Below are positions 27,082-64,000 of a stretch of 64,000 nt of DNA, one piece after another. Where the stretch lies: NCBI GenBank assembly GCA_023511915.1, contig JAIMAN010000005.1, positions 8,465 to 72,464 on the forward strand. The letters run 5' to 3'. Numbering within the stretch: position 1 is the first letter of the stretch; the number at the start of each line of letters is the position of its first letter. Below the pieces are notes generated by a model that saw only the letters and a list, made by a program, of their open reading frames with translations, was not told where the DNA came from and did no database searches. A program made the position numbers and the translations under genes. This stretch comes from Armatimonadota bacterium (GTDB lineage Bacteria; Armatimonadota; Fimbriimonadia; Fimbriimonadales; GBS-DC).

Positions 27082-27921
27082 CTAAAACTCCAGGTGCATC
27101 GGCAGGATGGGCGCGGAGTGGGTAATCGCGCCGACGGAGATGTAGTCCACGCCCATTTCGGCGACCGCGCGGACGGTCTCCAGCGTGACGCCGCCCGACG
27201 CCTCCAGAAAGCGCACGCGCCCTTTGGCAAGGCGCACTGCCTCGCGCAGCGTTTCGGGGGGCATGTTGTCGAGCAGGATGCCGTCCGCGCCTGCGGCGAC
27301 GGCTTGCTCAACCTGTGTGAGCGTCGTGCATTCCACCTCGACGGCGAGCAGGTGATGCGCATGCTGGCGTGCGCGGCGCACGGCTTCGGCGATGTCGCCC
27401 CCCAGCGCGGCGAGGTGGTTGTCCTTGATGAGGATGCCGTCGTACAGCCCAACGCGGTGATTGCGCCCGCCGCCGATGCGCACGGCGTACTTCTCCAGCA
27501 GGCGCAGGGCGGGGGTCGTCTTGCGCGTGTCCACAATCTGCGCGCCTGTGCCCGCGACGGCGTCCACGAACTGGCGTGTGCGCGTGGCGATGCCTGACAG
27601 GTGCTGCAAAAAGTTCAGCGCGGTGCGTTCCGCCTTCAGGATCGCGCGCGTGTTGCCCTCAAGCGTCAGCACGGGCGTATCGGGCGCGAGGCGCGCGCCG
27701 TCTGTCAGCGCGTTAGGGAAGCGCGCTTCAGAGTCCAGCCGCTGGAACACACGCTTGGCAATCTCCACCCCGCACAAAATGCCCTCTGCCTGGGCAAAGA
27801 TGGCGCATCGGGTCTGGTGGTCAGGGGGAATCAGGCTGTCGGTTGTCCAGTCGCCCGCGCCGAGGTCTTCCTGCAGGGCGAGTTCGATGAGCGTCTCCAC
27901 TGCGCGCACATCCAGCGTCAT
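27082..27921 (-). CDS. nadC: Nicotinate-nucleotide pyrophosphorylase (quinolinate PRTase)
   Basis: AERTALN, DTRKTTP, NHR, LIKDNH, EVEC, LLDNM, EASGG. Confidence 0.95.
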   Translation of the reverse strand: MTLDVRAVETLIELALQEDLGAGDWTTDSLIPPDHQTRCAIFAQAEGILCGVEIAKRVFQRLDSEARFPNALTDGARLAPDTPVLTLEGNTRAILKAERTALNFLQHLSGIATRTRQFVDAVAGTGAQIVDTRKTTPALRLLEKYAVRIGGGRNHRVGLYDGILIKDNHLAALGGDIAEAVRRARQHAHHLLAVEVECTTLTQVEQAVAAGADGILLDNMPPETLREAVRLAKGRVRFLEASGGVTLETVRAVAEMGVDYISVGAITHSAPILPMHLEF

Positions 27922-51645: not shown

Positions 51646-53193
51646 TCACTCCCACTCAATCGTCGCAGGCGGCTTGGAACTGAGGTCGTACAGCACGCGG
51701 TTGACGCCGGGCGCCTCGTTGCTGATGCGGTTGGCGACGCGCAGCAGCAGGTCCCACGGCAACTCGGCAGGCTCGGCGGTCATCGCGTCCTCGCTATGCA
51801 CCACGCGCAGCACAATCGGGTACTGGTAGGTGCGCTGGTCGCCCATCACGCCGACCGAGCGCACATCGGGCAGCACGGCGAACGCTTGCCAGACGCGCTG
51901 CGCCCAGCCCGTGCGGGTGAGTTCCTCGTTCAGAATCGCGTCCGCCGCGCGCACAATCGCCAACTTCTCCGCCGTTACTTCGCCCAGCACGCGCACTGCC
52001 AAGCCCGGTCCAGGGAACGGCTGCCGCCACACGATTTCGGGGGGCAGCCCCAACTCCTGCGCGACGCGGCGCACCTCGTCCTTGAACAGGTAGCGCAGCG
52101 GCTCGATGAGTTCCATACGCATCCAGTCGGGCAGCCCGCCGACATTGTGGTGCGTCTTGATTTTCGCGGCGAGGCGCGTGCCGCTCTCGATGACATCGGG
52201 GTACAGCGTGCCCTGCGCCAAGTAGCGGCACTGCCCAATCGCGTCGGCGTGCGCTTCGAACACGCGCACGAACTCCTCGCCGATGACCTTGCGCTTCTGC
52301 TCGGGGTCAACGACGCCCCGCAGTCGCTGCAGGAACCGCTCGCGGGCGTCCACGAAAATCAGGCGGCTGGGGAAGTGCTGCGTGAACAGCGTCCGCACCT
52401 GCTCCGCCTCGCCCGCGCGCATCAGCCCGTGATCGACGAAGATGCAGGTGAGTTGCTCGCCGATGGCGCGTTGCACCAGCGCGGCGACCGTGCAGGAGTC
52501 GACGCCGCCGCTGACGGCGCACAGCACGCGCTCGCTGCCCACCTGCGCGCGGATGCGGGCGACGCTCTCGTCGATGAAGTTGCGCATCGTCCAGTCGCCC
52601 TTGCAGCCGCACACCGCATACAGGAACTGGCGCAGCAGGTGCATGCCGAACGGCGTGTGCGCCACTTCGGGATGGAACTGCACGCCGTAGAGATGTCGCT
52701 GCAGGTCGCCCATCGCCGCGACGGGCGTGTTCTCGGTCTCCGCCAGCACTACAAAACCTGGCGGGGGCGTCTGCACCATGTCGCCGTGGCTCATCCAGCA
52801 GGTCAGGTGGAAGTCCAGTTGCTCGAACAGCGGTTCGGCATGCACGACGGTCAGCAGCGTGCGCCCGTACTCGCGCTGTGCAGCAGGCTGCACGACGCCG
52901 CCCAGCAGGTGCGCCATCAACTGATGCCCGTAGCAGATGCCCAGCACAGGCACGCCCAGCGTGAACAGTTCGGGGTCGACGCGCGGGGCGTTCGGCTCAT
53001 AGACGCTCGCGGGACCGCCCGACAGGATAATGCCCTTTGGCTGGCGGGCGCGTAGGGCGTGCAGGGGCGTATCATACGGCAGAATCTCGCAGAACACATT
53101 GCACTCGCGCACGCGCCGCGCAATCAACTGCGTGTATTGCCCGCCGAAGTCCAGAATCGCGACCTGCTCGTGCGCGCCGATTGGGGTCTCCAT
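51646..53193 (-). CDS. guaA: GMP synthase (glutamine-hydrolysing)
   Basis: [45 protein letters not shown]. Confidence 0.98.
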
Positions 53194-53250
53194 CGGGGAA
53201 TAGGATACCATGCAATCCACGGGCGGCACAATCGCCGTCGACGCCGCGTA

Positions 53251-53277
53251 GCAGGAATCCCCGCGCCCGCGCCGAAT
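53251..53277 (+). promoter_or_regulatory. Sigma-H-like promoter (GCAGGAA-N16-GAAT)
   Basis: Recurrent motif, 12 nt before the ATG. Confidence 0.55.
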
Positions 53278-53289
53278 GCCCATAGCGCC

Positions 53290-54507
53290 ATGCTACGCAC
53301 GATATTCGGCTTCGAGATGCCGACGCGCCTGCTGTTTGGGCAGGGCGCAGTGGAGAACTTGGGCTTCGAGTGCAGTTTGAACGGTTGGGCAAGCGCGCTC
53401 ATCGTCACGGACGCGGGCGTCCACAAGGCGGGGCTGACGCAGCCAGTGGAGGCGCAGTTGCAGGCGCAGGGTGTGCGCTACCGCCACTACACGGGCGTCG
53501 TGCCGAACCCTACGATTGAGAGCATCGAGGCGGCGGTACCCGACGCGCAGGCGGTCGATGTGGTGATTGCCGTCGGCGGGGGCAGCGTGATGGACAGCGC
53601 GAAGCTCATCAACGCTATTCGCACGCACGGCGGGCGCGTGCGCGACTACGAGGGCACGGACACCGTCCCCGCGCCGTGCAAGCCGCTGGTCGCTATCCCC
53701 ACCACCGCAGGCACGGGCAGCGAGGTCACTTTCATCGCGATGTTCACCGACGCGGGCAAACGCCAAAAAATGCCCGTGCTGAGTCGCCACCTCGCGCCCC
53801 ACTTGGCGATTGTTGACCCTGAGATGACGCGCAACCTGCCCCCCGACGCCACCGCGCAGACGGGGCTGGACGCGCTCACGCACGCCATCGAAGCGATTGT
53901 CGACCTGCAGGCGAACCCGTTCTCGGACATGCTGGCGTTCGAGGCGATACGGCTGATCACGCGCTACTTGCCGCGCGCGGTCGCCGACGGGCGCGAGGAC
54001 ATCGAAGCGCGCGGGGCGATGGCGTTTGCCGCGACGATTGCAGGCGCAGCGTTCAACAACAGCATGGTCGGGCTGGCGCACGCGATGGCGCACGCGTTGG
54101 GCGGGCTGTATGACCTCCCGCACGGGCTGTGCTGCGCGCTCGCGCTGCCGGTGGCGATGCACTTCAACCTCGAAAGCCGACGCGAGCGGTTCGAGGAAAT
54201 CGCGCAGGTGATGGGCTACGCGCACACCCAATCAGAGGTCGTGCCGATGCCCGGCGCAGTGGTGCAAGGCAGCGTGTGGGACAAGACCTTCACCGCCGAA
54301 GACGCGGTTCTGCGCGTGCGCCAACTGATGAGCGAGGTCGGGCTGCCCGCGCACCTGATCGATGTCGGCGTGGAAGTTTCCGAGAGCGACTTGGAGACGC
54401 TTGCCGACCTGACGCTGGCGGACGGCTCGATTCTGTTCAATCCTGTCCCGCCGACGCGCGAGCAGGTGAAAGACCTGCTGCGCCATATCGCTACCTACAC
54501 GGAGTGA
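53290..54507 (+). CDS. Iron-containing alcohol dehydrogenase
   Basis: [33 protein letters not shown]. Confidence 0.93.
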
Positions 54508-54511
54508 CCGC

Positions 54512-56176
54512 ATGCTACGGAGGGAGATTCTGGGTATCCCGCTTGGGATTTGGCTGGGCAGCGTCGTGTACGCGCTGCTGTGCATCGTGTTGCGCTCGTA
54601 CTATATCGACTACGAGGGTCTGCGGCAGATTGCGGCGGTTTCGGAGGGCATCAGTCGCGCCTCGACGACCTGGTGGAGCGGGCAGAGCGTGCTGGGCGTG
54701 CTGATGCTGTGGCTGGTCACGCTGCCGCTGAAGTTCGTGCTGCCGTTGGTGGACGCGGCGCAGAGTGTAGGCGCGCTGAGCATCTGGGCGTCGGGGCTTA
54801 TCCTGTATCGGATCCTGCGCTTGGCGGGGCTAAGCGTTGGGCTGTGCGGCTGGCTCACCTTTCTGTTCTACGGCGCGAATGTCGCGTGGGTGAGCGCGAC
54901 GATGTTGCCTGTGGCGGCGCTGTCGCTGCTACTGACCGCGTGGTGGGGGCTGAACGCGATTCGCTGGCTGGCGGAGCGTGAGTTGGATGCGGCGGGCGGG
55001 ACGCGGCTGGGCGTGCTGGCGGGCGTGCTGGGGCTGGTGAACCTGTTCGCGCTGCTGCCTGCGTTGGCGGTCGGCATTCTCGGGCTGCGTCGGGGCAGTG
55101 GCGCGGGGCTGTTGGGCGCGGCAGCAGGTGTCGCGCTCGTGGGCTACCTAATCGTCTACTTCGCCGTCTTGCCCAGCACGGTGCAGGTCGGCGGCGCGAC
55201 GCGACCCAAACCGTCGATTGTGGAGTGGTTCTGGACGGGCGAAGGCGCAAGCGCGGCGGACATTCCGCGCTATTCGGGGCTGTATTGGCGCGCGATGGGC
55301 GAGCAGGCACAAAACGCGATTCTCGCGCTGGGGCAGCCGTTCCGCGTGCGCGATGTGTACCAATACTATGTGCAAGGGCGGTTCATCACGCTGATCAAGG
55401 GGCTGTTTCTGCTGCTGGCGCTGGCGTTCGTGATTGTGCTGGGGGTGATACGGTTGTCGGGCGAGCGCGTGCCGACTGAGCGGCTGGTGAGTGCGGTGCG
55501 CGGCGTGGGCGGGCTTACGCTGCTGCTCGCGCTGATTGTGCTGGTCGCGTGGCAGGGCGATCGGCAGGCGTTCTATTTATGGACGCTGTTTTGGGCGATT
55601 GTGGGGCTGGGCGGCTGGCTCGGCAGTTATGTGGACGAGGATGTGCGCCGTCTCAGCCTGGCTGCGCCTGCACTGGTAGCGGTGATGCTGTTGTTCGGAC
55701 TGATAAAGGTCGCAACCCTGCGCTCCACCGAGTACGACACCGAGCGTCAAGAGGCGGAGGCGTTCGCGCCTGGCATTCGCGCGGGCGATGTGATGGTCGC
55801 CGCCACACGCTTGGCGGAGTGGCTGCGCTACTACAGCGCAGGCAGGGCGCGCGCCATCGACGCTGCTTGCTGGCTTAACCCCGAAACCGACCTCAAGTCG
55901 CTGCTCCAAGAAGTGCAGCAAGCGACCGAGCGCGCTTCTGAAGCCGAGCCAACAGTCGCCCGCATCATCCTATGGGGCTACGCGCTCGACCCCAACCCCC
56001 TCAAAGAGGCGGGGTTCAATTCCAACCCAGCGTGGCTCGAATCGCTGGGCAAGGCGCAGGAACTGGCGCGCAACTCAGGCGGCGCGTACCGTCGGCGCTA
56101 TGTGAACATGGTGGCATATCCTACCCTGATTCAACAGACAGGCGAGGTGCATACTTTCGGCAAGTCGCGTAATTAA
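54512..56176 (+). CDS. Polytopic membrane protein of unknown function
   Basis: About 10 hydrophobic segments plus a soluble C-terminal domain. Confidence 0.65.
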   Translation: MLRREILGIPLGIWLGSVVYALLCIVLRSYYIDYEGLRQIAAVSEGISRASTTWWSGQSVLGVLMLWLVTLPLKFVLPLVDAAQSVGALSIWASGLILYRILRLAGLSVGLCGWLTFLFYGANVAWVSATMLPVAALSLLLTAWWGLNAIRWLAERELDAAGGTRLGVLAGVLGLVNLFALLPALAVGILGLRRGSGAGLLGAAAGVALVGYLIVYFAVLPSTVQVGGATRPKPSIVEWFWTGEGASAADIPRYSGLYWRAMGEQAQNAILALGQPFRVRDVYQYYVQGRFITLIKGLFLLLALAFVIVLGVIRLSGERVPTERLVSAVRGVGGLTLLLALIVLVAWQGDRQAFYLWTLFWAIVGLGGWLGSYVDEDVRRLSLAAPALVAVMLLFGLIKVATLRSTEYDTERQEAEAFAPGIRAGDVMVAATRLAEWLRYYSAGRARAIDAACWLNPETDLKSLLQEVQQATERASEAEPTVARIILWGYALDPNPLKEAGFNSNPAWLESLGKAQELARNSGGAYRRRYVNMVAYPTLIQQTGEVHTFGKSRN

Positions 56177-56178
56177 GA

Positions 56179-56760
56179 ATGATGAGCGACGACACTTACT
56201 TGATTGAGGCAGCCAAGCAGGGCGACAACGAGGCGTTCGATCGGTTGTGGGCGCGCCATCGCGACAAGGTGTTCCGCTCGCTGCTGCGCGCCTGCGGGGG
56301 CAACCCCGACACGACGCACGATGTATTGCAAGACGCGCTGCTGAACGCCTTCAAGGCGCTGCAGCAGTTTCGGGGGGACGCCAACTTCGCCACATGGCTG
56401 TACACTATCGCGCGGCGGCTGTGCATCCGCGCCCGACGCGACTTAGACCGCTTCTACTCGCTGGACGACCCGCTGAACACCGAAGAGGGGCAAGCCATCC
56501 TGCGCCAACTGATTGACCAGCATGCGCAAGACCCCGAAGCGCTCGTGATTGAGAACGACCTGCGCGAGCGCGTGCAGCAGGCAGTGGCGGAGCTGCCCGA
56601 CTCGCTGCGCCCCGTGCTGGTGCTGCGCGATATCGAGGAACTCTCCACCGAAGAGACGGCGCAACGGCTGGGCATCACGCAAGCGGCGGTCAAAGCGCGC
56701 CTGCACCGCGCCCGCGAACTGCTCCGCCAAAAACTGGAGGCGTACCTGCACGAGCCATGA
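56179..56760 (+). CDS. ECF sigma factor
   Basis: DVLQDALL, FRGDANFATWLYTIA, LVLRDIEELS..ETA..LG..VKARLHRAR. Confidence 0.92.
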   Translation: MMSDDTYLIEAAKQGDNEAFDRLWARHRDKVFRSLLRACGGNPDTTHDVLQDALLNAFKALQQFRGDANFATWLYTIARRLCIRARRDLDRFYSLDDPLNTEEGQAILRQLIDQHAQDPEALVIENDLRERVQQAVAELPDSLRPVLVLRDIEELSTEETAQRLGITQAAVKARLHRARELLRQKLEAYLHEP

Positions 56761-56826
56761 ACGCCCAGCAACGCCTATAAGTAGTGGATTTTCGGGCGGA
56801 TTCCCCCCACATAGCCGCCCAACCCC

Positions 56827-56855
56827 TTGACAAAACGGCGTTTTCTTGTTATAAT
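56827..56855 (+). promoter_or_regulatory. Consensus sigma70 promoter
   Basis: TTGACA-N17-TATAAT with extended TG; a second TATAAT at 56942. Confidence 0.75.
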
Positions 56856-57046
56856 TTCAGGGGGCAACGCCGACGGGGGCGTCCACCCTGTGAAATTTTG
56901 TTCGAGAAACGCCGATTAAGCAGGAAAAACGCGCGTTGGGTTATAATTAAGACTCGGCGTCTCCTGCAGTGGAACTCACGGCAAGGGCGAATCGTATACC
57001 CTTGCAGGTAGGAACGCATGATATGAAAACCAACGCGCGGGCGAGA

Positions 57047-57064
57047 TTGTGAACAAGTTCACAA
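57047..57064. promoter_or_regulatory. Rex operator
   Basis: Perfect palindrome TTGTGAA-caag-TTCACAA equal to the Rex consensus; rex gene lies downstream on the same strand. Confidence 0.85.
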
Positions 57065-57094
57065 ACGCGCCCGTCCATAGGAGGTGTTATCGAA

Positions 57095-58357
57095 GTGCCC
57101 GTATTGGATGAGGAGATGGAAATTTTGATGGATACGCAGGCAACGGCTCGTCTGAGCAAGGCGGGGCGGGACTCGCTCTACGACGACCCGCTCGGACTGG
57201 AGATGGAGTCGCCCGAACTGGACGACCTCGATGTGCTGGACGACGACTTCTCGTCGCTGAGCATCGGCGGTCTGGAACTGGGCGACGAGCTGGGCGGCGA
57301 AGAGGAAGTGGACTTCTGGGGCGGCGTCGGCGAGGAGACCCCGCACGAGGACGACAGCGTCGAAGTCGAACTCTGGATGCTCCAGAGCCGACGCTCACAA
57401 CTGCTCACGCCCGAAGAGGAGATCCGATTCTCGCAGCAGGTGCAAGAGGGGGAACGGCTCTACAAAATCCGCAAGCAGATTGCCGACAAGCGCAAGGTAG
57501 ACCCAGAGAGCATCAGCGAGGAAGACTGGGCAAAGGCGGCGAACCTGCCCGCGTGGGAACTCGCCGTGCGCATCCAAGAAGCCGAAGAGGCGAAGCGACG
57601 GCTGATTGAATCGAACCTGCGCTTGGTGGTCAGCATCGCCAAGCGGTACGCCTCGCGCGGCATCTCGCTCGCCGACCTGATTCAGGAAGGCAACTTGGGG
57701 CTGATTCGCGCCGTCGAGAAGTTCGACCCCGAACGCGGGTTCCGATTTAGCACCTACGCCACTTGGTGGATTCGGCGCGCGATTGCCCGCGCGGTCATCA
57801 ACAACAGCCGCACCATCCGAATCCCCGTGTATGTGGCGGAACTCATCAACAAGGTCATCAAGACCGAGTTGCGCCTGCAGCAGATTCTGCAGCGGGAGCC
57901 GACCGACGAGGAAATCGCCGCCGAGACGAAAATGTCCGTCGAGCGCGTGCGCGAAATCCGACGCGCAGCGGTGGAGCCAATCTCCATCGAAAGCCCCGTC
58001 GGCGAGCGCGACAACGCCACGCTGGGCGAGTTCATCCCGTCCAGCGACATCGTGCCCACGCCCGAAGATGTCACGGAGCGGCTCATCCTGCGCGAGCAGA
58101 TCGACATGATTCTGGAGAAGTTGCAGCCGCGCGAGCGCGATGTGGTGCGCCTGCGCTTCGGGCTGGATGACGGACACCAGCGCACGCTCGAAGAGGTCGG
58201 CGCGGAACTCAAAATCACGCGCGAGCGCGTGCGCCAACTCGAACTGCGCGCCCTGCGCAAACTGCGCCAAATCGGCGAGCGCATCGAAGACCTGCGCCGC
58301 AATCAGGGGCTCGAACTCGAAGACGCGCTCGCGCTCATCGACACGGACTTCCAGTAA
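57095..58357 (+). CDS. RpoD/SigA-family sigma70 factor with divergent region 2.4
   Basis: SNLRLVVSIAKRY, DLIQEGNLGLIRAVEKFD, FSTYATWWIR, RTLEEVG..ITRERVRQLE; AGGAGG RBS. Confidence 0.9.
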   Translation: MPVLDEEMEILMDTQATARLSKAGRDSLYDDPLGLEMESPELDDLDVLDDDFSSLSIGGLELGDELGGEEEVDFWGGVGEETPHEDDSVEVELWMLQSRRSQLLTPEEEIRFSQQVQEGERLYKIRKQIADKRKVDPESISEEDWAKAANLPAWELAVRIQEAEEAKRRLIESNLRLVVSIAKRYASRGISLADLIQEGNLGLIRAVEKFDPERGFRFSTYATWWIRRAIARAVINNSRTIRIPVYVAELINKVIKTELRLQQILQREPTDEEIAAETKMSVERVREIRRAAVEPISIESPVGERDNATLGEFIPSSDIVPTPEDVTERLILREQIDMILEKLQPRERDVVRLRFGLDDGHQRTLEEVGAELKITRERVRQLELRALRKLRQIGERIEDLRRNQGLELEDALALIDTDFQ

Positions 58358-58363
58358 TCGCCA

Positions 58364-58393
58364 GCGTCGGGCAGGGCGCCTCCTGCCCGACGC
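58364..58393. repeat. 12-bp stem hairpin between the sigma gene and rex
   Basis: GCGTCGGGCAGG-gcgcct-CCTGCCCGACGC; no U-tract. Confidence 0.6.
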
Positions 58394-58405
58394 CGTTCAA
58401 TCGCT

Positions 58406-59080
58406 ATGACAGAGACGCGCGTGCCTGTGCCGACGCTCGAACGGTTAGCCATCTACCTGCGCGTGCTGCTGGACGCCCACGAATCGGGCATCCAGACGCT
58501 CTCCTCGCAAGAGATGGAGCAGCATTCGGGCATCAGCGCAGCGCAGTTCCGCAAAGACCTCTCCTACTTCGGCGAGTTCGGCAAGCCAGGCGTCGGCTAC
58601 TCGGTGCAGGGGCTGATCGCGTGCATCGAGCGCATCCTGCGCTTGGACGAGGAGCAGCCGATTCTGTTGGTTGGCGCGGGCAACATCGGCTCCGCGCTGG
58701 TGGGCTACCCGAACTTTCGGGCGCACCGCCTGCGCATCGCCGCCGTGTTCGACAACAACTTCGTCAAAATCGGACGCCCCTTCGGCGACCTGATCATCGA
58801 GGACATCGCCCGCATCCGTGAGGTGAACGCGCAGATTGGCGCGCGGCTGGGCATTATCGCGGTGCCTGCGCACGCCGCGCAAGAGGTCGCCGACGCGCTG
58901 GTCGACGCGGGCGTCACGGGCATCCTGAACTTCGCGCCGACCATCCTGCGCACGCCCCCGCATGTGCATGTGCGCAATGTGTCGTTCCTGCAGGAGTTGG
59001 CGGTGCTGTCCTATCACGCGGTTGAGGACGCGCTCTGCGTGAACGGGCAGGCGCGCCGCGGAGGCGACGATGGAGTATGA
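58406..59080 (+). CDS. rex: Redox-sensing transcriptional repressor Rex
   Basis: TLERLAIYLR, FRKDLSYFGEFGKPGVGY, VGAGNIG, GILNFAP. Confidence 0.95.
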   Translation: MTETRVPVPTLERLAIYLRVLLDAHESGIQTLSSQEMEQHSGISAAQFRKDLSYFGEFGKPGVGYSVQGLIACIERILRLDEEQPILLVGAGNIGSALVGYPNFRAHRLRIAAVFDNNFVKIGRPFGDLIIEDIARIREVNAQIGARLGIIAVPAHAAQEVADALVDAGVTGILNFAPTILRTPPHVHVRNVSFLQELAVLSYHAVEDALCVNGQARRGGDDGV

Positions 59081-60647
59081 CTTTCTGGTGCTGGGCAGCG
59101 GGATGGCGGGGCTGACCTTCGCGCTGAACGCCGCGCCGCACGGCACAGTCGCCATCCTCACCAAAAAACAACGCTCCGAGTCAAACACGAACTACGCGCA
59201 GGGCGGCATCGCCGCCGCGATGGGCGCGGACGACTCGTGGGAACTGCACCTGCACGACACGCTGATTGCGGGCGCAGGGCTGTGTGAGCGCGAAGCCGTC
59301 GAGGTGCTGGTGCGCGAAGGACCGCGCATGGTGCAGTGGCTCATCGAACTCGGCGCGCAGTTCGATCGCAATCCCGACGGCAGCCTTGCGCTGGGACGCG
59401 AGGGCGGACACACGCGCAACCGCATCCTGCACGCCGCCGACCACACAGGCTACGAAATCGAGCGCACGCTGCTCATCGCCGCCCGCAAAACGCCGCACAT
59501 CACCGTCTTGGAACACTACCAGGCGTTGGACTTGGTGCTGCAGGACGGCGCGTGTGTGGGTGTGCGCGTGCTGGACACGCTCACGGGCGACCTGTTCGAG
59601 ATTCGGGCGCGGGCGGTGCTGCTGGCGACGGGCGGCTGCGGACAGGTCTACCTGCACACGAGCAACCCGCCGATTGCCACAGGCGACGGCATCGCGATGG
59701 CATGGCGCGCGGGCGCGGTCATCGCCAACATGGAGTTCATCCAGTTCCACCCGACGACGCTGTACCACACGGACGCGCCGTCGTTCCTGATTTCGGAGGC
59801 GGTGCGCGGCGAGGGCGGACTGCTCAAGCGACGCGACGGCTACCGCTTCATGCCCGACTACGACCCGCGCGCCGAACTCGCCCCGCGCGATATCGTCGCC
59901 CGCGCCATCGACGCCGAACTCAAAAAGACGGGCGACCCGTGCGTCTACCTCGACATCACGCATCTGGATGCCGACTTCATCCAGCGGCGCTTCCCGACGA
60001 TTTACCAGACCTGCCTGCAGTACGGCATCGACATCACGCGCGAGCCGATTCCCGTCGTGCCCGCGGCGCACTACACCTGCGGCGGGGTGTGGACGGACTT
60101 GCACGGGCGCACGACGATTCCGCGCCTGTACGCCTGCGGCGAGGTCGCCTACACGGGCGTGCATGGGGCGAACCGCTTGGCGAGCAACTCGCTGCTGGAG
60201 GCGTTGGTGTTCGCCGAGCGCGCGGCGATTCACGCGACGACCCGCTTGGACGAGCCGCCACCGCAGCCGAAGCCGTCGTGCATCACCGCGCATCTTGCGC
60301 CCCCGACGCCTGCCCCCACACTCGACGCCCACGCCGACAACTGGGACGCCGCGCGGCTGCGCATCCGCCAACTGATGCACAAGCGCGTGGGCATCGTGCG
60401 CACGGTCGCCCGCCTGCAGGAGGCGTTCTGCGCGCTGGAGACGCTTGCCGCACAACTCGAAGCCGCCTACCGTCAGACGCCCATCACCGTCGACTCGTGT
60501 GAGGCGCGCAACCTCGCCGCGTGCGCCCTGCTAATTACCCAGAGCGCGCTCGCCCGCAAAGAGAGCCGCGGGCTGCACTATGTGCTGGACTATCCCGAAT
60601 CGCGCGACGAGTACGCCGTGTGCCCCACGCTGATTACGCCCGTATGA
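59070..60647 (+). CDS. nadB: L-aspartate oxidase
   Basis: GSGMAGL, YAQGGIA, REGGH, EFIQFHPT, LISEAVRGEG, AHYTCGG, GVHGANRLASNSLLE, ESRGLH. Confidence 0.95.
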   Translation: MEYDFLVLGSGMAGLTFALNAAPHGTVAILTKKQRSESNTNYAQGGIAAAMGADDSWELHLHDTLIAGAGLCEREAVEVLVREGPRMVQWLIELGAQFDRNPDGSLALGREGGHTRNRILHAADHTGYEIERTLLIAARKTPHITVLEHYQALDLVLQDGACVGVRVLDTLTGDLFEIRARAVLLATGGCGQVYLHTSNPPIATGDGIAMAWRAGAVIANMEFIQFHPTTLYHTDAPSFLISEAVRGEGGLLKRRDGYRFMPDYDPRAELAPRDIVARAIDAELKKTGDPCVYLDITHLDADFIQRRFPTIYQTCLQYGIDITREPIPVVPAAHYTCGGVWTDLHGRTTIPRLYACGEVAYTGVHGANRLASNSLLEALVFAERAAIHATTRLDEPPPQPKPSCITAHLAPPTPAPTLDAHADNWDAARLRIRQLMHKRVGIVRTVARLQEAFCALETLAAQLEAAYRQTPITVDSCEARNLAACALLITQSALARKESRGLHYVLDYPESRDEYAVCPTLITPV

Positions 60648-60979
60648 AAAAAGTGGACTGCATCATTCGCCCGCACACGCTGGAGGCGGTCAAGACCGCG
60701 CTGAACGAACTCGGCGTCACGGGGATGACGGTCAGCGAGGTGCGCGGGTGCGGCAGCAGCCCGCCCGAAACCGACTGGTTCGGTGAGGAGACGCTGATTC
60801 GCCTGCCCATCCGCCTGCGCCTGGAGTTGGTCGTGCCCGACGAGCAGGTGGAGCCGATTATTGAGGCGGTGCTTCGCCACGCCCGCACGGGTCAGCCCGA
60901 CGACGGCAAAATCTTCGTATTGCCCTACGCCGACGCGATACGCATCCGCACGGAAGAGCGTGGCGAAGCCGCCCTGTAG
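60644..60979 (+). CDS. PII family protein with non-canonical T-loop
   Basis: MKKVDCIIRP, GMTVSEVRG, TGQPDDGKIFV, IRIRTEE; ATGA overlap with nadB. Confidence 0.88.
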   Translation: MKKVDCIIRPHTLEAVKTALNELGVTGMTVSEVRGCGSSPPETDWFGEETLIRLPIRLRLELVVPDEQVEPIIEAVLRHARTGQPDDGKIFVLPYADAIRIRTEERGEAAL

Positions 60980-60982
60980 CGA

Positions 60983-61300
60983 CTACACGCCCTCAATCCG
61001 CACGCCCAGCACCTGCAGGAACTTCGCCAGCCATTCGGGGTGCGCGGGCCATGCGGGCGCGGTGACGAGGTTGCCGTCCACGACCGCTTTGTCGGCGGAC
61101 ACTTCCTCGAAGCGCGCCCCTGCCAGCGTCAGTTCGGGACCGACGGCGGGGTAGGCGGTCGCCGTGCGCCCCTGCAGCACGCCTGCAGCGGTCAGCACCT
61201 GCAGCCCGTGGCAAATCGCCGCGACAGGCTTGTTCGCCTCAAAAAAGTGGCGCACCATCTCCAGCACCTTCGGCTCGCGGCGGATGTATTCGGGCGCGCG
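60983..61300 (-). pseudogene. 5'-truncated DJ-1/PfpI family gene (C-terminal half only)
   Basis: [32 protein letters not shown] present; homology stops at about 61300 and the frame reaches a stop at about 61361 without an ATG/GTG/TTG. Confidence 0.75.
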
Positions 61301-61353
61301 GAGGAATTCAGGGTTGTGGCAATCAACTGCCCATCGGGTATAACTCCCATGCC

Positions 61354-64000
61354 ATGCGTTTCACCGAGCCGTGGTATCTGCTATTGTTGCCTGTGGCGTG
61401 GGGCTGGGTCTGGTGGACGGGTCGGCGTCTGCTGGGGGTCAGTCGGGCGCGTCGGCGGGTGATTCTGGCGTTGCGGTTCGCGCTGGTGCTGCTGATTGTG
61501 CTGGCGCTGGCGGGGTGGCAGGGGGTCGGGTCGCTGCGCAGCGTCTGCACGGTGTTCGTGCTGGATCGGTCGGCGAGCATCTCGGACGAGGGGCGCGCCG
61601 CCGCGCAGCAGTACCTACAGGAAGCCCTCCGCCAAGCCCCCGACGACGCGCGGACGGGGCTGGTCGTCTTCGGCGCGGAGCCGATGGTGGAGTGGCTGCC
61701 CGCGCCGCGCAAGACGGTGGACAACCTGTACGCCAAGCCGAACCCCGACGGCACAGATATTGCCGCCGCGTTGCGCTTGGCGAGCGCGCTGTTCCCCGAC
61801 GGCTACGCGCGGCGCATCGTGCTGCTGACCGACGGCAACGAGACGGCAGGCGACGCCTACGCCGCCGCGCAGGTCGCTGCAGTGGAGGGCATCCCCATCG
61901 ATGTCGTGCCGCTGCCGACGGGCAAGGCGGGCAACGACGCGCTGATCGAAGCGCTGGAGGCGCCCAGTGTCGCCAAAGTCGGCGAGCCGTACACCGTGCG
62001 CATCGTGGTGCATTCCCAAAAGCACGCGGAGGGCGCCATCGCGCTTGACCGCGAAGGCGCGCCCCTCAAGCGCATCCCCGTCAAACTCTCGCCCGGCGCG
62101 AACCTGATTACGACCACGCTGCGGGCGGACAAGCCCGGCGTGCAGCGCATCCGCGCCGTGCTGGAGGCGCAGCCCGACAGCGACCCGCGCAACAATCTGG
62201 GGCTGGCGCTGACCCGCGTGCAGGGCAAGCCGCATGTGCTGATTGCGGAGGGTAGGGCAGGCGCGAGCGACGCGATTGCACGCGCCCTGCAGGCGAACGC
62301 GATTGCCGTCACGCGCGTGCGCGAGGGCAACTTCCCCGACCGACCCGAAAAACTGCTCGACTACGACGCGATTGTGTTCAACGACTTCCCCGCAACCGCG
62401 CTTAGCCCGCAGCAGATGGAAGCGGTGCAGTCCGCCGTGCGCGAGGGCGGCGTCGGCTTCGTGATGATTGGCGGCGAGAACGCCTACCAGCCGGGCGGCT
62501 ACTACGGCACGCCCATCGCCGAACTCCTGCCCGTGGACTTGGAGATCAAGCATCGGCAAATCCAGCATGCGGCGACGGTGGTGCTGATTGTGGACGCTTC
62601 GGGCAGTATGAACGAGTATATCGGGCAGCACAAGGTGGCGCACTTGGCGGCGGAGGCGTCCATCAAGACGCTGCAGATGCTGCGCCCGATTGACCGCTTC
62701 GGGGTGATTATCAGCAGTCACGGGTCGGACTGGCTGCTGCCCGATATGGCGCGCACGGGGTTCGACCCGTTCAGTTGCGACGGGCGCCAGTTTCAAGGCT
62801 GTCATGGGCAGCGGGCGGGTCAGCCGCCGAGCGCGATTTTCCCCGCCAGCGAGCGCGAGCCGATTATTGCCGTGCTGCAGAAGGTGTACGGCACAGGGGG
62901 CGGGATCTTCGTGCGCGGCAGTCTGGAGATGGCGATGCGCGGGATGCTGACCGAGCCGCCCGACCGCGCACGGCACATCATCATGCTGGCGGACGCCAAC
63001 GACTGCGACGAGCAGGAGGGGAGCATTGAAGTCGCGCAGCAGTTGCGTCGGCTTGGCGTGACGCTGAGCGTGGTGGCGTTCGGCGACGGCGACGCAACCA
63101 AATTCCTGAAGCAGCTGGCGCGGGTGGGCGGCGGGCAGTTCTATCAAACGCGCGACGCGAGTTCGCTGCCTCGCCTGTTCACCGCCGATGTGAGCGCGAT
63201 GACGCGCACGGCAATTGAGCAGGGCGCGTTCATCCCCAAAGTGAACACGGCGGACGAACGCCTGCGCGAGGTGGACTGGAGCCGCACGCCCGCGCTGCTG
63301 GCGTACAACTTGGTCTCGGAGCGACCGCTGGCGCAGACGCTGATGCGCACGCACAAAGACGACCCGCTGCTGGCGGTGTGGCGGTATGGGCTGGGCACGG
63401 CGATTGCGTTCACCTCGGACGCGCAGCCGCGCTGGGCGCAACGCTGGCTGGGCTGGGACGGCTACGCGGTCTTCTGGACGCAGGTCATCCGCAGCGCGAT
63501 GCGCCCCAGCGCACAGCCGAACCTCGGGCTGACGGCGACTGTGCGCAACGGGCAGGCGATTGTGGAACTGCAAGCGTTCACCCCGCAGGGCGAGCCAATC
63601 AACGGGCTGACGCCGAAACTGACGGTGGGCGCGCCGTCGGGCGAGACGACGGAACTGACGCTGAGCATGGAGGGCGCGGGACGCTACACGGCGCAGTTCC
63701 CGCTGCGGGGGCAGGGGCTGTATGTGCTAAGCACGCAGGGCGACTTCGGCACAGGGCGCACGGCGACGCTGACCGCCGCGCTGGCTGTGCCCTACCCGCT
63801 GGAGTACCGCTTCTACCGCCAGAACCGCCCGCTGCTGGAGCGGATAGCGTCGCTGACGGGCGGGCGCGTCGCGCCAGAGCCTGCCCGCGCCTACGAACCG
63901 CCGCCCGCGCCCCAGCGGTTCACGCGCGACTTGTGGACGCTGGCGCTGCTGCTGGCGCTCATGCTGCTAATGGTGGACATCACGGTACGGCGCGTGGTGA
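61354..64000 (+). CDS. Membrane-anchored VWA / glutamine amidotransferase-like domain protein (3' truncated by window edge)
   Basis: [54 protein letters not shown]; no stop found before window end. Confidence 0.85.

Follow-up and report, generated by a model that had tools for sequence, protein, structure and literature searches.

In one thermophilic family of the Fimbriimonadales, the redox-sensing repressor Rex probably autoregulates an operon in which a gene for a group-2-like sigma factor comes first, with rex, nadB and a gene for a PII-like protein behind it. The operon was found in a stretch of 64,000 nt (the window) from an uncultured member of the Fimbriimonadales (Armatimonadota) from hot springs. 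An earlier note on this DNA had described an exact Rex box downstream of a consensus sigma-70 promoter and just upstream of the ribosome-binding site of a sigma gene, with rex, nadB and a PII gene following on the same strand and the frames of nadB and the PII gene overlapping. The coordinates of the box were confirmed, and the genes were recovered by the ORF list, Pfam and NCBIfam. All features are listed in Table 1.

Table 1. Features of the sigma-rex-nadB-PII locus, in coordinates of the window.
Feature	Position	Strand	Basis
P1, sigma-70 promoter TTGACA-17-TATAAT, TG before the -10	56827-56855	+	12/12 score
TGTGAAA half-site, then a T run; some 160 nt 5' of the main box	56888-56899	+	Columns nearly invariant in genus alignment
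P2-like element: invariant CAGGA, then TATAAT (56942-56947)	56921-56947	+	Alignment
P3, ECF-type promoter-like motif GGAAC-N17-CGTATA	56971-56998	+	Conservation
Rex operator, exact palindrome TTGTGAA-N4-TTCACAA, 18 bp	57047-57064		Pattern scan and conservation
Shine-Dalgarno sequence GGAGG of the sigma gene	57080-57084	+	AGGAGGTG invariant in 14/14 aligned loci
Sigma-70-family gene (regions 1.2, 2, 3, 4)	57095-58357	+	ORF list, Pfam, NCBIfam
GC-rich hairpin between sigma stop and rex start, 12-bp stem, 6-nt loop	58364-58393	+	Covariation
rex, redox-sensing repressor, 224 aa	58406-59080	+	Pfam, NCBIfam, solved structures
nadB, L-aspartate oxidase, 525 aa	59070-60647	+	NCBIfam
PII-family protein, 111 aa, diverged T-loop	60644-60979	+	Pfam, NCBIfam

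The Rex operator and its conservation

The Rex operator is located 30 nt 5' of the GTG start codon of the sigma gene (57095) and is the only exact Rex box in the window as well as in the whole assembly of 2,729,659 bases. When up to two mismatches were allowed, six sites were detected in the genome compared to one for the reversed control pattern. Within the window, two sites with up to three mismatches were found against 0.56 expected; since 7 of 100 shuffles also reached two sites, only the exact site, together with its conservation, is given weight. Another three genomic sites with one or two mismatches (on contigs C27, C87 and C1) fall within coding regions and look like chance occurrences. 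The same type of box precedes a respiratory operon: in 19 of 24 family loci a multihaem cytochrome c gene has a box with at most two mismatches ahead of it, and in all 24 one with at most four. In genus g6, a full box with one mismatch is present at a distance comparable to that of the half-site upstream of the main box (Table 1), and this half-site is possibly a weak auxiliary Rex site.

Conservation of the box and of the gene order in relatives had been proposed as a check in the earlier note. At the same place, 44-52 nt 5' of the start of the sigma gene, 21 of the 24 rex-carrying family genomes have a box with at most two mismatches, and in 11 of these 21 it was exact. The distance of the box to the start codon is fixed in these genomes across five genera, while the leaders have otherwise diverged. 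In a set of named contigs, which overlaps largely with the genome set, the box was detected in 22 of 24 loci. The order sigma-rex-nadB was found in all 24 loci of this set, and the PII gene follows nadB in 23 of them, the remaining locus ending at a contig edge. The anatomy on which the earlier proposal of a Rex-gated sigma-rex-nadB-PII unit was built therefore stands, and the proposed gating is supported at the sequence level, since 21 of 24 genomes conserve both the box and the order of the genes. Three family genomes (G001, G006 and G018) have lost the box although rex is intact and the genes are still in the same order; control of the sigma gene by Rex is therefore dispensable.

In 31 of 56 Armatimonadota loci outside the family, rex has a box with at most two mismatches in the 300 nt upstream of it, compared to none of 134 control windows, and no sigma gene adjoins rex in the loci outside the family. 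As the box is upstream of rex elsewhere in the phylum, where no sigma gene adjoins rex, it corresponds to the usual autoregulatory operator of rex. The site is thus best read as an ordinary rex operator that in one family would also govern a sigma gene. Orthologues of the sigma gene in 15 loci of other families have no Rex box, the one match with two mismatches (L125) being unlike a Rex site. Exact boxes were absent from five genomes of sister family f3 without rex, whereas five rex-carrying genomes of the family contained four. Most orthologous boxes keep the TT/AA flanks and the inner A/T positions that typify Rex sites.

Promoters, leader and hairpin

P1 is positioned about 185 nt upstream of the Rex box. 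The loose criterion of the promoter scan performed at chance by itself (one found, 1.1 expected). Of the 22 family loci that extend far enough upstream, 18 have the exact P1 consensus and four, all of genus g2, lack it. In genus g1, 15 of the 16 loci with a sufficient upstream part carry the P2-like element, which has no canonical -35; none of 10 other loci does. P3 shows the pattern of ECF promoters, with a GGAAC-type -35, a CGT-type -10 and a spacing of 16-18 nt. GGAAC-N17-CGTAT was present in all 24 loci of genera g1, g2, g4 and g5, where it is located between -111 and -133 relative to the start codon, and absent from the single loci of g3 and g6; GGAAC-N16-18-CGTAT matched 12 times genome-wide. 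The consensus promoter described in the earlier note is thus present; it is distant from the box, however, and P3, about 50 nt upstream of the box, is conserved more widely.

A relaxed form of the P3 pattern was found ahead of 2 of 17 other sigma-family genes. The GGAAC-N17-CGTA form precedes only the ECF gene C62:21118-21729, and the gene on C107 has GAAAC-N16-CGTC. Ahead of the start of the neighbouring ECF gene (56179-56760) no such motif was detected. Judged by eye, an HtrA-type protease-like ORF is located downstream of the ECF gene on C62.

The operator is positioned at about +185, +93 and +42 from the three candidate start sites and overlaps no recognisable promoter. Rex would thus have to repress by acting as a roadblock, which is usually weaker.

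Downstream, the open reading frames of rex and nadB overlap by 11 nt, and those of nadB and the PII gene by 4 nt (ATGA). In the alignment of the hairpin between the sigma gene and rex, 88.8% of the cells were paired, compared to 33-45% in slid controls. Changes on both sides were seen in 8 of 12 pairs, and none of 500 shuffles reached the observed score. A clear U tract was not found at the hairpin, which is probably an attenuator or a stabiliser. In two of the four loci of genus g2 (L056 and L071), rex starts 5-8 nt past the sigma stop codon without a hairpin, making co-transcription hard to avoid there. Contigs from four metatranscriptome libraries cover the entire stretch, such contigs being no proof of transcription or of a single transcript. 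Two of them span the sigma-rex hairpin (X15, 58244-58612; X16, 58244-58762), and those over the leader begin at 56836, 56868 and 56871 and reach 57105.

The sigma factor

The sigma protein is 420 aa long and has, besides regions 1.2 to 4, an acidic extension at its N terminus. Pfam detected no Sigma70_r1_1 in it at E values up to 0.001; its paralogue next to dnaG contains region 1.1 (E 7.5e-13) and is encoded at the classic position after primase. The best RpoD scores of the Rex-linked sigma were 338.2 against a cut-off of 500, and 307.7 against 354 for RpoD_Cterm. It thereby falls below every RpoD equivalog cut-off of NCBIfam, and the dnaG-linked sigma likewise falls short of the cut-offs of 500 and 354. 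In a quick tree, the Rex-linked sigma falls within a 20-row clade (SH-aLRT 99) in which no member adjoins dnaG and which is separate from 14 other rows, 10 of them dnaG-linked. Arginine and alanine are found in region 2.4 of all 20 clade members, versus glutamine and threonine or serine in all 14 others. In none of the primary sigmas examined do the residues expected to read the -10 element at its upstream end match those of this sigma factor. Regions 1.2, 2, 3 and 4 without region 1.1, in a genome that encodes a separate primary sigma, place the Rex-linked protein by sequence as a group-2-like paralogue. The dnaG-linked sigma with region 1.1 is likely the primary one.

Rex, NadB and the PII-family protein

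By its sequence the Rex protein is canonical. It contains the domains Put_DNA-bind_N (PF06971, E 4.7e-15) and Rossmann-type CoA_binding (PF02629, E 9.4e-17), and scores above the NCBIfam cut-offs of NF003995 (240.6/126), NF003992 (227.4/226) and NF003993 (226.7/217). Eight solved Rex structures match with E values of 7e-42 to 3e-31, and in the alignment to solved Rex the glycine-rich Rossmann motif can be made out. NadB exceeds the cut-offs of NF006567 (639.4 vs 629) and TIGR00551 (608.4 vs 452.75); the SdhA/FrdA models stay below theirs, which distinguishes the protein from SdhA/FrdA. Of the other NAD genes, nadA is on another contig, with no Rex box in its vicinity at up to four mismatches, and nadC is about 30 kb off within the window.

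The last protein of the operon matches the PII family (PF00543, E 4.4e-27) and 41 solved PII chains, and scores below both NCBIfam PII cut-offs (93.2 vs 202 and 75.4 vs 181). Over about 17 positions, its T-loop departs from the T-loop of the canonical PII encoded in the same genome, and 17 orthologues of the family conserve this difference. By cut-off and T-loop it is thus not a canonical PII protein (GlnB/GlnK). Orthologues outside the family do not adjoin nadB.

Alternative explanations

The palindrome might be bound by a CRP-family regulator, with or without Rex, in which case the input to the operon would be a cyclic nucleotide or some other signal of the CRP type instead of NADH/NAD+. The TGTGA-N6-TCACA within the box is what we take to be the core of CRP-type sites, and the genome encodes one clear CRP/FNR-family protein (Pfam cNMP_binding, HTH_Crp_2, Crp), the recognition helix of which carries arginine, glutamate and arginine at the spacing that presumably reads TGTGA in E. 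coli CRP. However, the flanking and inner positions beyond this shared core fit Rex and are conserved as such in most orthologous boxes, the box accompanies rex genes across the phylum far beyond the control windows, and exact boxes occur in genomes with rex and in none of the five without it. We regard control by a CRP-type protein as highly improbable. Somewhat greater, yet still small, is the chance that Rex merely trims a sigma gene driven mainly by P1 and, at P3, by an envelope-stress ECF factor, the link to rex and nadB reflecting a chance arrangement of genes and having little redox significance for the sigma gene. The operator far 3' of P1 and clear of all promoters would fit this, as would an ECF-type motif more widespread than P1, the three family genomes that keep the sigma gene and gene order without the box, and the sigma orthologues of other families, one of them without rex, that work without any box. 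Against it stands the position of the box, which is fixed relative to the start codon in five genera with diverged leaders and hard to explain without selection for function there.

A further reading concerns the sigma factor itself, which could be the working principal sigma of the family, so that Rex would throttle housekeeping transcription. It outscores the dnaG-linked sigma on RpoD_Cterm (307.7 vs 255.7 bits) and against Thermus SigA (251 vs 213), with cyanobacterial SigA as best match (296). Its C-terminal part is 58% identical to distant Armatimonadota dnaG-linked sigmas, the genome's own dnaG-linked sigma, which is on a very long branch, reaching 36-45%, and its gene has an exact consensus promoter. 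Nevertheless, the missing region 1.1, which the dnaG-linked sigma has together with its place after primase, the separate clade apart from dnaG, the consistent difference in region 2.4 and the scores below all RpoD equivalog cut-offs make a principal role very unlikely indeed. A Rex operator that serves rex and a group-2-like sigma gene remains our preferred reading.

Proposed mechanism and significance

Rex is a known direct repressor of genes for fermentation, respiration and NAD. In the model that we infer here, for Rex binding and the roadblock as well as for promoter use, hairpin attenuation and the sigma regulon, a Rex dimer would occupy the palindrome before the sigma start codon at low NADH/NAD+ and would block RNA polymerase coming from the sigma-70 promoter and from the ECF-type promoter. 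When NADH rises, Rex would leave the DNA. More alternative sigma would be made, more Rex as negative feedback, and more L-aspartate oxidase, which would raise de novo NAD synthesis; the PII-like protein would be made too. The conserved hairpin after the sigma gene would probably let less transcript pass through rex-nadB-PII than over the sigma gene. More tentatively, and with considerable doubt on our side, NADH/NAD+ through Rex and an envelope-stress ECF signal may converge on the leader and set the sigma level, such that redox state rewires promoter choice genome-wide and the co-acquired PII-like protein modulates the sigma factor or NAD synthesis.

If true, placing a sigma factor under Rex would introduce a second tier in which NADH/NAD+ changes promoter use by RNA polymerase, and would explain wide effects from a small direct regulon, here of about three operons. 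The locus would show how an existing autoregulatory operator captures a new regulator gene, and the leader order of consensus promoter, ECF-type promoter, operator and putative attenuator hairpin would be a compact natural signal integration. With its diverged PII paralogue linked to nadB, the locus also presents a candidate new PII target. To our knowledge, there is almost no regulatory knowledge for the Armatimonadota.

Comparison with known systems

A Rex operator ahead of an operon that contains rex, giving negative feedback, is described in passages on S. coelicolor rex-hemACD and on Caldicellulosiruptor rex (PMC5355995, PMC6391272). The locus resembles these in its canonical operator before such an operon; here, however, the sigma gene comes first and the operator is located deep in a 235-nt leader, off any promoter. 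NAD biosynthesis is named among the Rex regulon's conserved members in a passage of PMC6391272, citing Ravcheev et al. 2012. Here nadB directly follows rex and is the sole linked NAD gene. In M. tuberculosis, expression of sigB is stated in part of PMC10027907 to depend almost wholly on SigE. The likeness is an ECF-type -35/-10 ahead of the gene for a principal-like non-primary sigma, represented here by the motif of a candidate ECF promoter, with a Rex operator as an addition 3' of it. Control of NAD synthesis by PII via NadE, as outlined in part of PMC7196632, likewise ties a PII-family gene to an NAD biosynthesis gene. Here the partner is nadB and not nadE, and the PII-like protein has a diverged T-loop and scores below both NCBIfam PII cut-offs.

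A literature search did not retrieve a Rex-gated sigma gene. The earlier note had not recognised the cascade as a described one, which does not hold for autoregulation and control of NAD synthesis, both in print in the relevant passages of PMC6391272, and holds better for the unusual cargo. What is unusual here as cargo of a Rex operon is the sigma gene and possibly also the gene for the PII-like protein. Judging from the sequence, redox state probably controls a sigma factor, an uncommon variation on a well-known circuit.

A sigma factor gene behind a predicted Rex operator

The genes for a sigma-70-family protein, Rex, L-aspartate oxidase (nadB) and a PII-family protein follow one another downstream of a palindrome which is predicted to be a Rex operator (see table). 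In its exact form this Rex box occurs once in the window and once in the entire 2.73-Mb, 122-contig assembly, and sites with at most two mismatches were found six times genome-wide versus once for the reversed control pattern. Rex aligned over its full length with solved Rex proteins (E-values 7e-42 to 3e-31). The nadB reading frame shares 11 nt with rex and 4 nt with the PII gene. What the earlier note had described here, namely the exact box, the consensus promoter P1, the ribosome-binding site, the four frames and the hairpin behind the sigma gene, was borne out at every point.

Features of the sigma-rex-nadB-PII region and related sites (positions without contig or locus prefix refer to the window; C, contig of the same genome; L, named locus)
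Feature	Position	Strand	Description
nadC domain match	27091-27591	-	quinolinate phosphoribosyltransferase
Cluster ahead of leader	53059-56760	+	iron-type alcohol dehydrogenase gene, 554-aa ORF, ECF sigma gene
P1 promoter	56827-56855		TTGACA-17-TATAAT, exact, TG extension; upstream of Rex box
ECF-type motif	56971-56998		GGAAC-N17-CGTATA; downstream of P1
Predicted Rex box	57047-57064		TTGTGAA-N4-TTCACAA, exact palindrome
GGAGG	57080-57084		downstream of Rex box
Start of sigma gene	57095		GTG
Sigma-70-family protein	57095-58357		Pfam regions 1.2, 2, 3, 4
Hairpin	58364-58393		12-bp stem; between sigma stop and rex start
Rex	58406-59080		three NCBIfam Rex models, scores above cut-off
L-aspartate oxidase (nadB)	59070-60647		scores above cut-off for two nadB equivalogs, below it for the SdhA/FrdA models
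PII-family protein	60644-60979		Pfam P-II
DJ-1/PfpI gene	60983-61300	-	3' half only
CRP/FNR-family regulator	L212:991-1746 (C23)
dnaG-linked sigma	L115:1616-2827 (C40)	-	carries region 1.1
Rex-type box, cytochrome c	C42:20353-20370		58 nt upstream of gene
Rex-type box, ubiE-type	C43:2405-2422		overlaps possible GTG start
ECF sigma gene on C62	C62:21118-21729		within region C62:21060-23831

Conservation and origin of the operator

Since the earlier note had named conservation in relatives as a check, the arrangement was followed through the family, in which rex was found in 23 of the 24 other species genomes. In all 24 rex-carrying family genomes, the window's own included, rex is directly preceded by the sigma gene and followed by nadB. 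Allowing for up to two mismatches, 21 of the 24 carry a Rex box 44-52 nt ahead of the sigma start. In 11 genomes this box is exact, and G021 has two boxes. No box was found ahead of the sigma gene in the remaining three (G001, G006 and G018); G001 and G006 show clear decay at the aligned position but retain an intact rex. In a set of named contigs, which largely overlaps with these genomes, the sigma-rex-nadB order was kept in 24/24 loci, the PII gene came next in 23 (in the other the contig stops short) and the box was present in 22. The sequencing runs containing the stretch are labelled as hot-spring, sediment and microbial-mat metagenomes.

Among the Armatimonadota loci outside the family, no sigma gene adjoining rex was found. 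However, 31 of 56 such loci have a Rex box (at most two mismatches) in the 300 nt preceding rex, versus 0 of 134 control windows drawn from the same loci. Judged from this distribution, the box belongs to rex as its autoregulatory operator, a known arrangement (PMC5355995, PMC6391272). The adjacency of rex and nadB predates the family, being present in 7/7 loci fetched from two other families, f2 and f5, as well as in three loci of Chthonomonadales; no Rex box with up to three mismatches was detected in those of f2 and f5. The window's family is the only one in which sigma and the PII-like gene have been added to rex-nadB. Orthologues of the sigma gene in other families had no Rex box within 1.5 kb (15 loci), and rex was not found in the six genomes of the sister family (f3), which also holds sigma orthologues. 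Exact Rex boxes were absent from five genomes of this sister family (counts 60 versus 36 for the control pattern), whereas five rex-carrying genomes of the window's family contained four (counts 52 versus 16).

Other candidate Rex targets

A Rex-type box precedes a multihaem cytochrome c gene and was recovered at up to four mismatches in 24/24 family loci, in 19 of them at up to two, which makes this operon a likely respiratory Rex target. The gene after it is taken to be of the molybdopterin-oxidoreductase type, and the pair presumably resembles Alternative Complex III. A third box, at the start of a ubiE-type methyltransferase gene, was found at up to four mismatches in 23/23 loci; because it overlaps a possible start codon, its conservation may be that of coding sequence. 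By eye, the ORF following the ubiE-type gene appeared to encode a polyprenyl synthase. The three other near-matches in the genome all lie within genes and look like chance.

Weighing the operator

The palindrome could instead be bound by a CRP-family regulator, as it includes the core of a CRP-type site. The genome encodes a single clear member of the CRP/FNR family, whose recognition helix might be able to bind the TGTGA half-sites that Rex would recognise. That the box accompanies rex genes speaks against this, and we favor Rex as the protein bound to it. How strongly Rex would act is a separate matter: since three family genomes have lost the box, Rex may merely trim expression of the operon, a reading to be set beside the retention of the box in the other 21. 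As the box overlaps none of the promoter elements of the leader, repression by Rex would operate as a roadblock.

Leader and promoters

The leader, which spans 335 nt from the upstream ECF sigma gene to the sigma start, is conserved at the DNA level. P1 matches the consensus exactly in 18 of the 22 loci with enough sequence and is absent in four loci of one genus (g2). The ECF-type motif GGAAC-N17-CGTAT was present at a nearly fixed distance in 24/24 loci of four genera and absent in the two most distant genera. A search of 55500-62000 against Rfam (E ≤1) gave no match in the leader, and RNAalifold on 14 sequences of the genus did not support a structure (covariation term -0.9; double changes in 4 of 38 pairs). 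The conservation was taken to be that of DNA rather than of a riboswitch or sRNA. A terminator-like hairpin at 56873-56891 was dropped, its structure not being conserved.

Genome-wide, the strict ECF motif had 12 matches, none of them near any sigma gene except the Rex-linked one. Another ECF sigma gene, on contig C62, has GGAAC-N17-CGTA about 30 nt ahead of its own start; as a lead rather than a finding, it could be an envelope-stress ECF factor driving the Rex-linked sigma. By eye, the ORF downstream of it appears to encode an HtrA-type protease. Immediately ahead of the leader, the alcohol dehydrogenase gene, the 554-aa ORF (no Pfam match) and the ECF sigma gene abut; no Rex box was found in this cluster, and one RNA-library contig spans its ECF gene into the leader.

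The sigma-rex hairpin and RNA libraries

Across 20 loci from three genera, 88.8% of the hairpin cells were paired, with changes on both sides in 8 of 12 pairs; none of 500 shuffles reached the observed covariation score and slid controls paired at 33-45%. No clear U tract was seen. In two of the four g2 loci the hairpin is absent and rex starts 5-8 nt past the sigma stop; of the other two, one differs in sequence and one (L054) forms its own, shorter GC stem. The hairpin might act as an attenuator or stabiliser setting the sigma-to-Rex ratio. Its match to PtaRNA1 in Rfam was below threshold (23.2 bits versus 47) and was discarded.

Contigs of four metatranscriptome libraries covered every bin of 56500-61300, two of them bridging sigma and rex and one bridging rex and nadB. 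Contigs in the leader started at 56836, 56868, 56871 (preceded by adapter-like letters) and 56900. Since the libraries may contain DNA, a bridging contig does not equal a single transcript and contig depth cannot rank genes, coverage was taken as presence only. On the same ground a 5-10x lower depth over rex-nadB than over sigma was dropped, and no claim was drawn from contigs of two libraries starting at 58399, for which there was no DNA run for comparison.

The Rex-linked sigma factor

Sigma-70 region 2 had 18 matches in the genome. One belongs to a second RpoD-like gene, which is the primary sigma by classic criteria because it directly follows the primase gene dnaG and carries region 1.1. 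In the Rex-linked sigma region 1.1 was not found; an acidic N-terminal stretch (34 acidic and 6 basic residues) takes its place. A quick maximum-likelihood tree placed the Rex-linked sigma in a clade of 20 rows (SH-aLRT 99), none adjoining dnaG, whereas 10 of the remaining 14 rows are dnaG-linked; the genome's own dnaG-linked sigma is unusually diverged, and its placement is unsure because of its long branch. Two positions of region 2.4 are arginine and alanine in 20/20 clade members versus glutamine and threonine or serine in 14/14 others. In E. coli sigma-70 these are the positions that recognise the upstream edge of the -10 element. Compared with RpoD models and with solved primary sigmas, the Rex-linked sigma outscored its dnaG-linked paralogue, which counts against a simple group-2 label and would fit a working principal sigma. 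With region 1.1 and primase adjacency belonging to its paralogue, we give that role a small probability.

The PII-like protein and NAD genes

A canonical PII is encoded elsewhere in the genome. The operon copy falls below both NCBIfam PII cut-offs and deviates throughout the T-loop and at one B-loop glycine, a difference kept in 17 family orthologues. Similar T-loops occur in three loci of the sister family and f5 (L224, L226 and L228), where the gene does not adjoin nadB, rex or sigma; the next gene in all three encodes a Big_7 plus TPR protein, a possible ancestral partner. A complex prediction of NadB with three PII-like copies (score 0.00, mark 0.32) speaks neither for nor against an interaction. 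The nadC match shares the contig with nadB, about 30 kb ahead of it; nadA, on another contig, adjoins an ORF that by eye resembles a NuoG-type iron-sulfur subunit.

Beyond the PII-like gene, the DJ-1/PfpI frame encodes 94 aa corresponding to profile positions 84-163 of 165, while a close relative has the gene at its full length, about 190-210 aa. In all four runs, RNA-library contigs carry other letters past 61297, which, reverse-complemented and read by eye, encode the missing part. An assembly deletion, rearrangement or chimeric join therefore lies near 61298.

Comparison with known systems

The earlier note had not recognised this cascade as described. That holds for its sigma part, as no sigma gene behind a Rex operator was found in the papers examined on Rex and sigma factors, although Ravcheev 2012 and supplements of papers, outside the literature covered, may list one. 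It does not hold for the autoregulation of Rex or for its control of NAD synthesis, both already published (PMC6391272). What appears new is thus the sigma gene behind the predicted operator. PII control of NadE is likewise known (PMC7196632). In Mycobacterium tuberculosis, SigE drives the group-2 gene sigB (PMC10027907); the C62-type motif ahead of the Rex-linked sigma recalls such an ECF factor driving a group-2 sigma and may serve as a lead.
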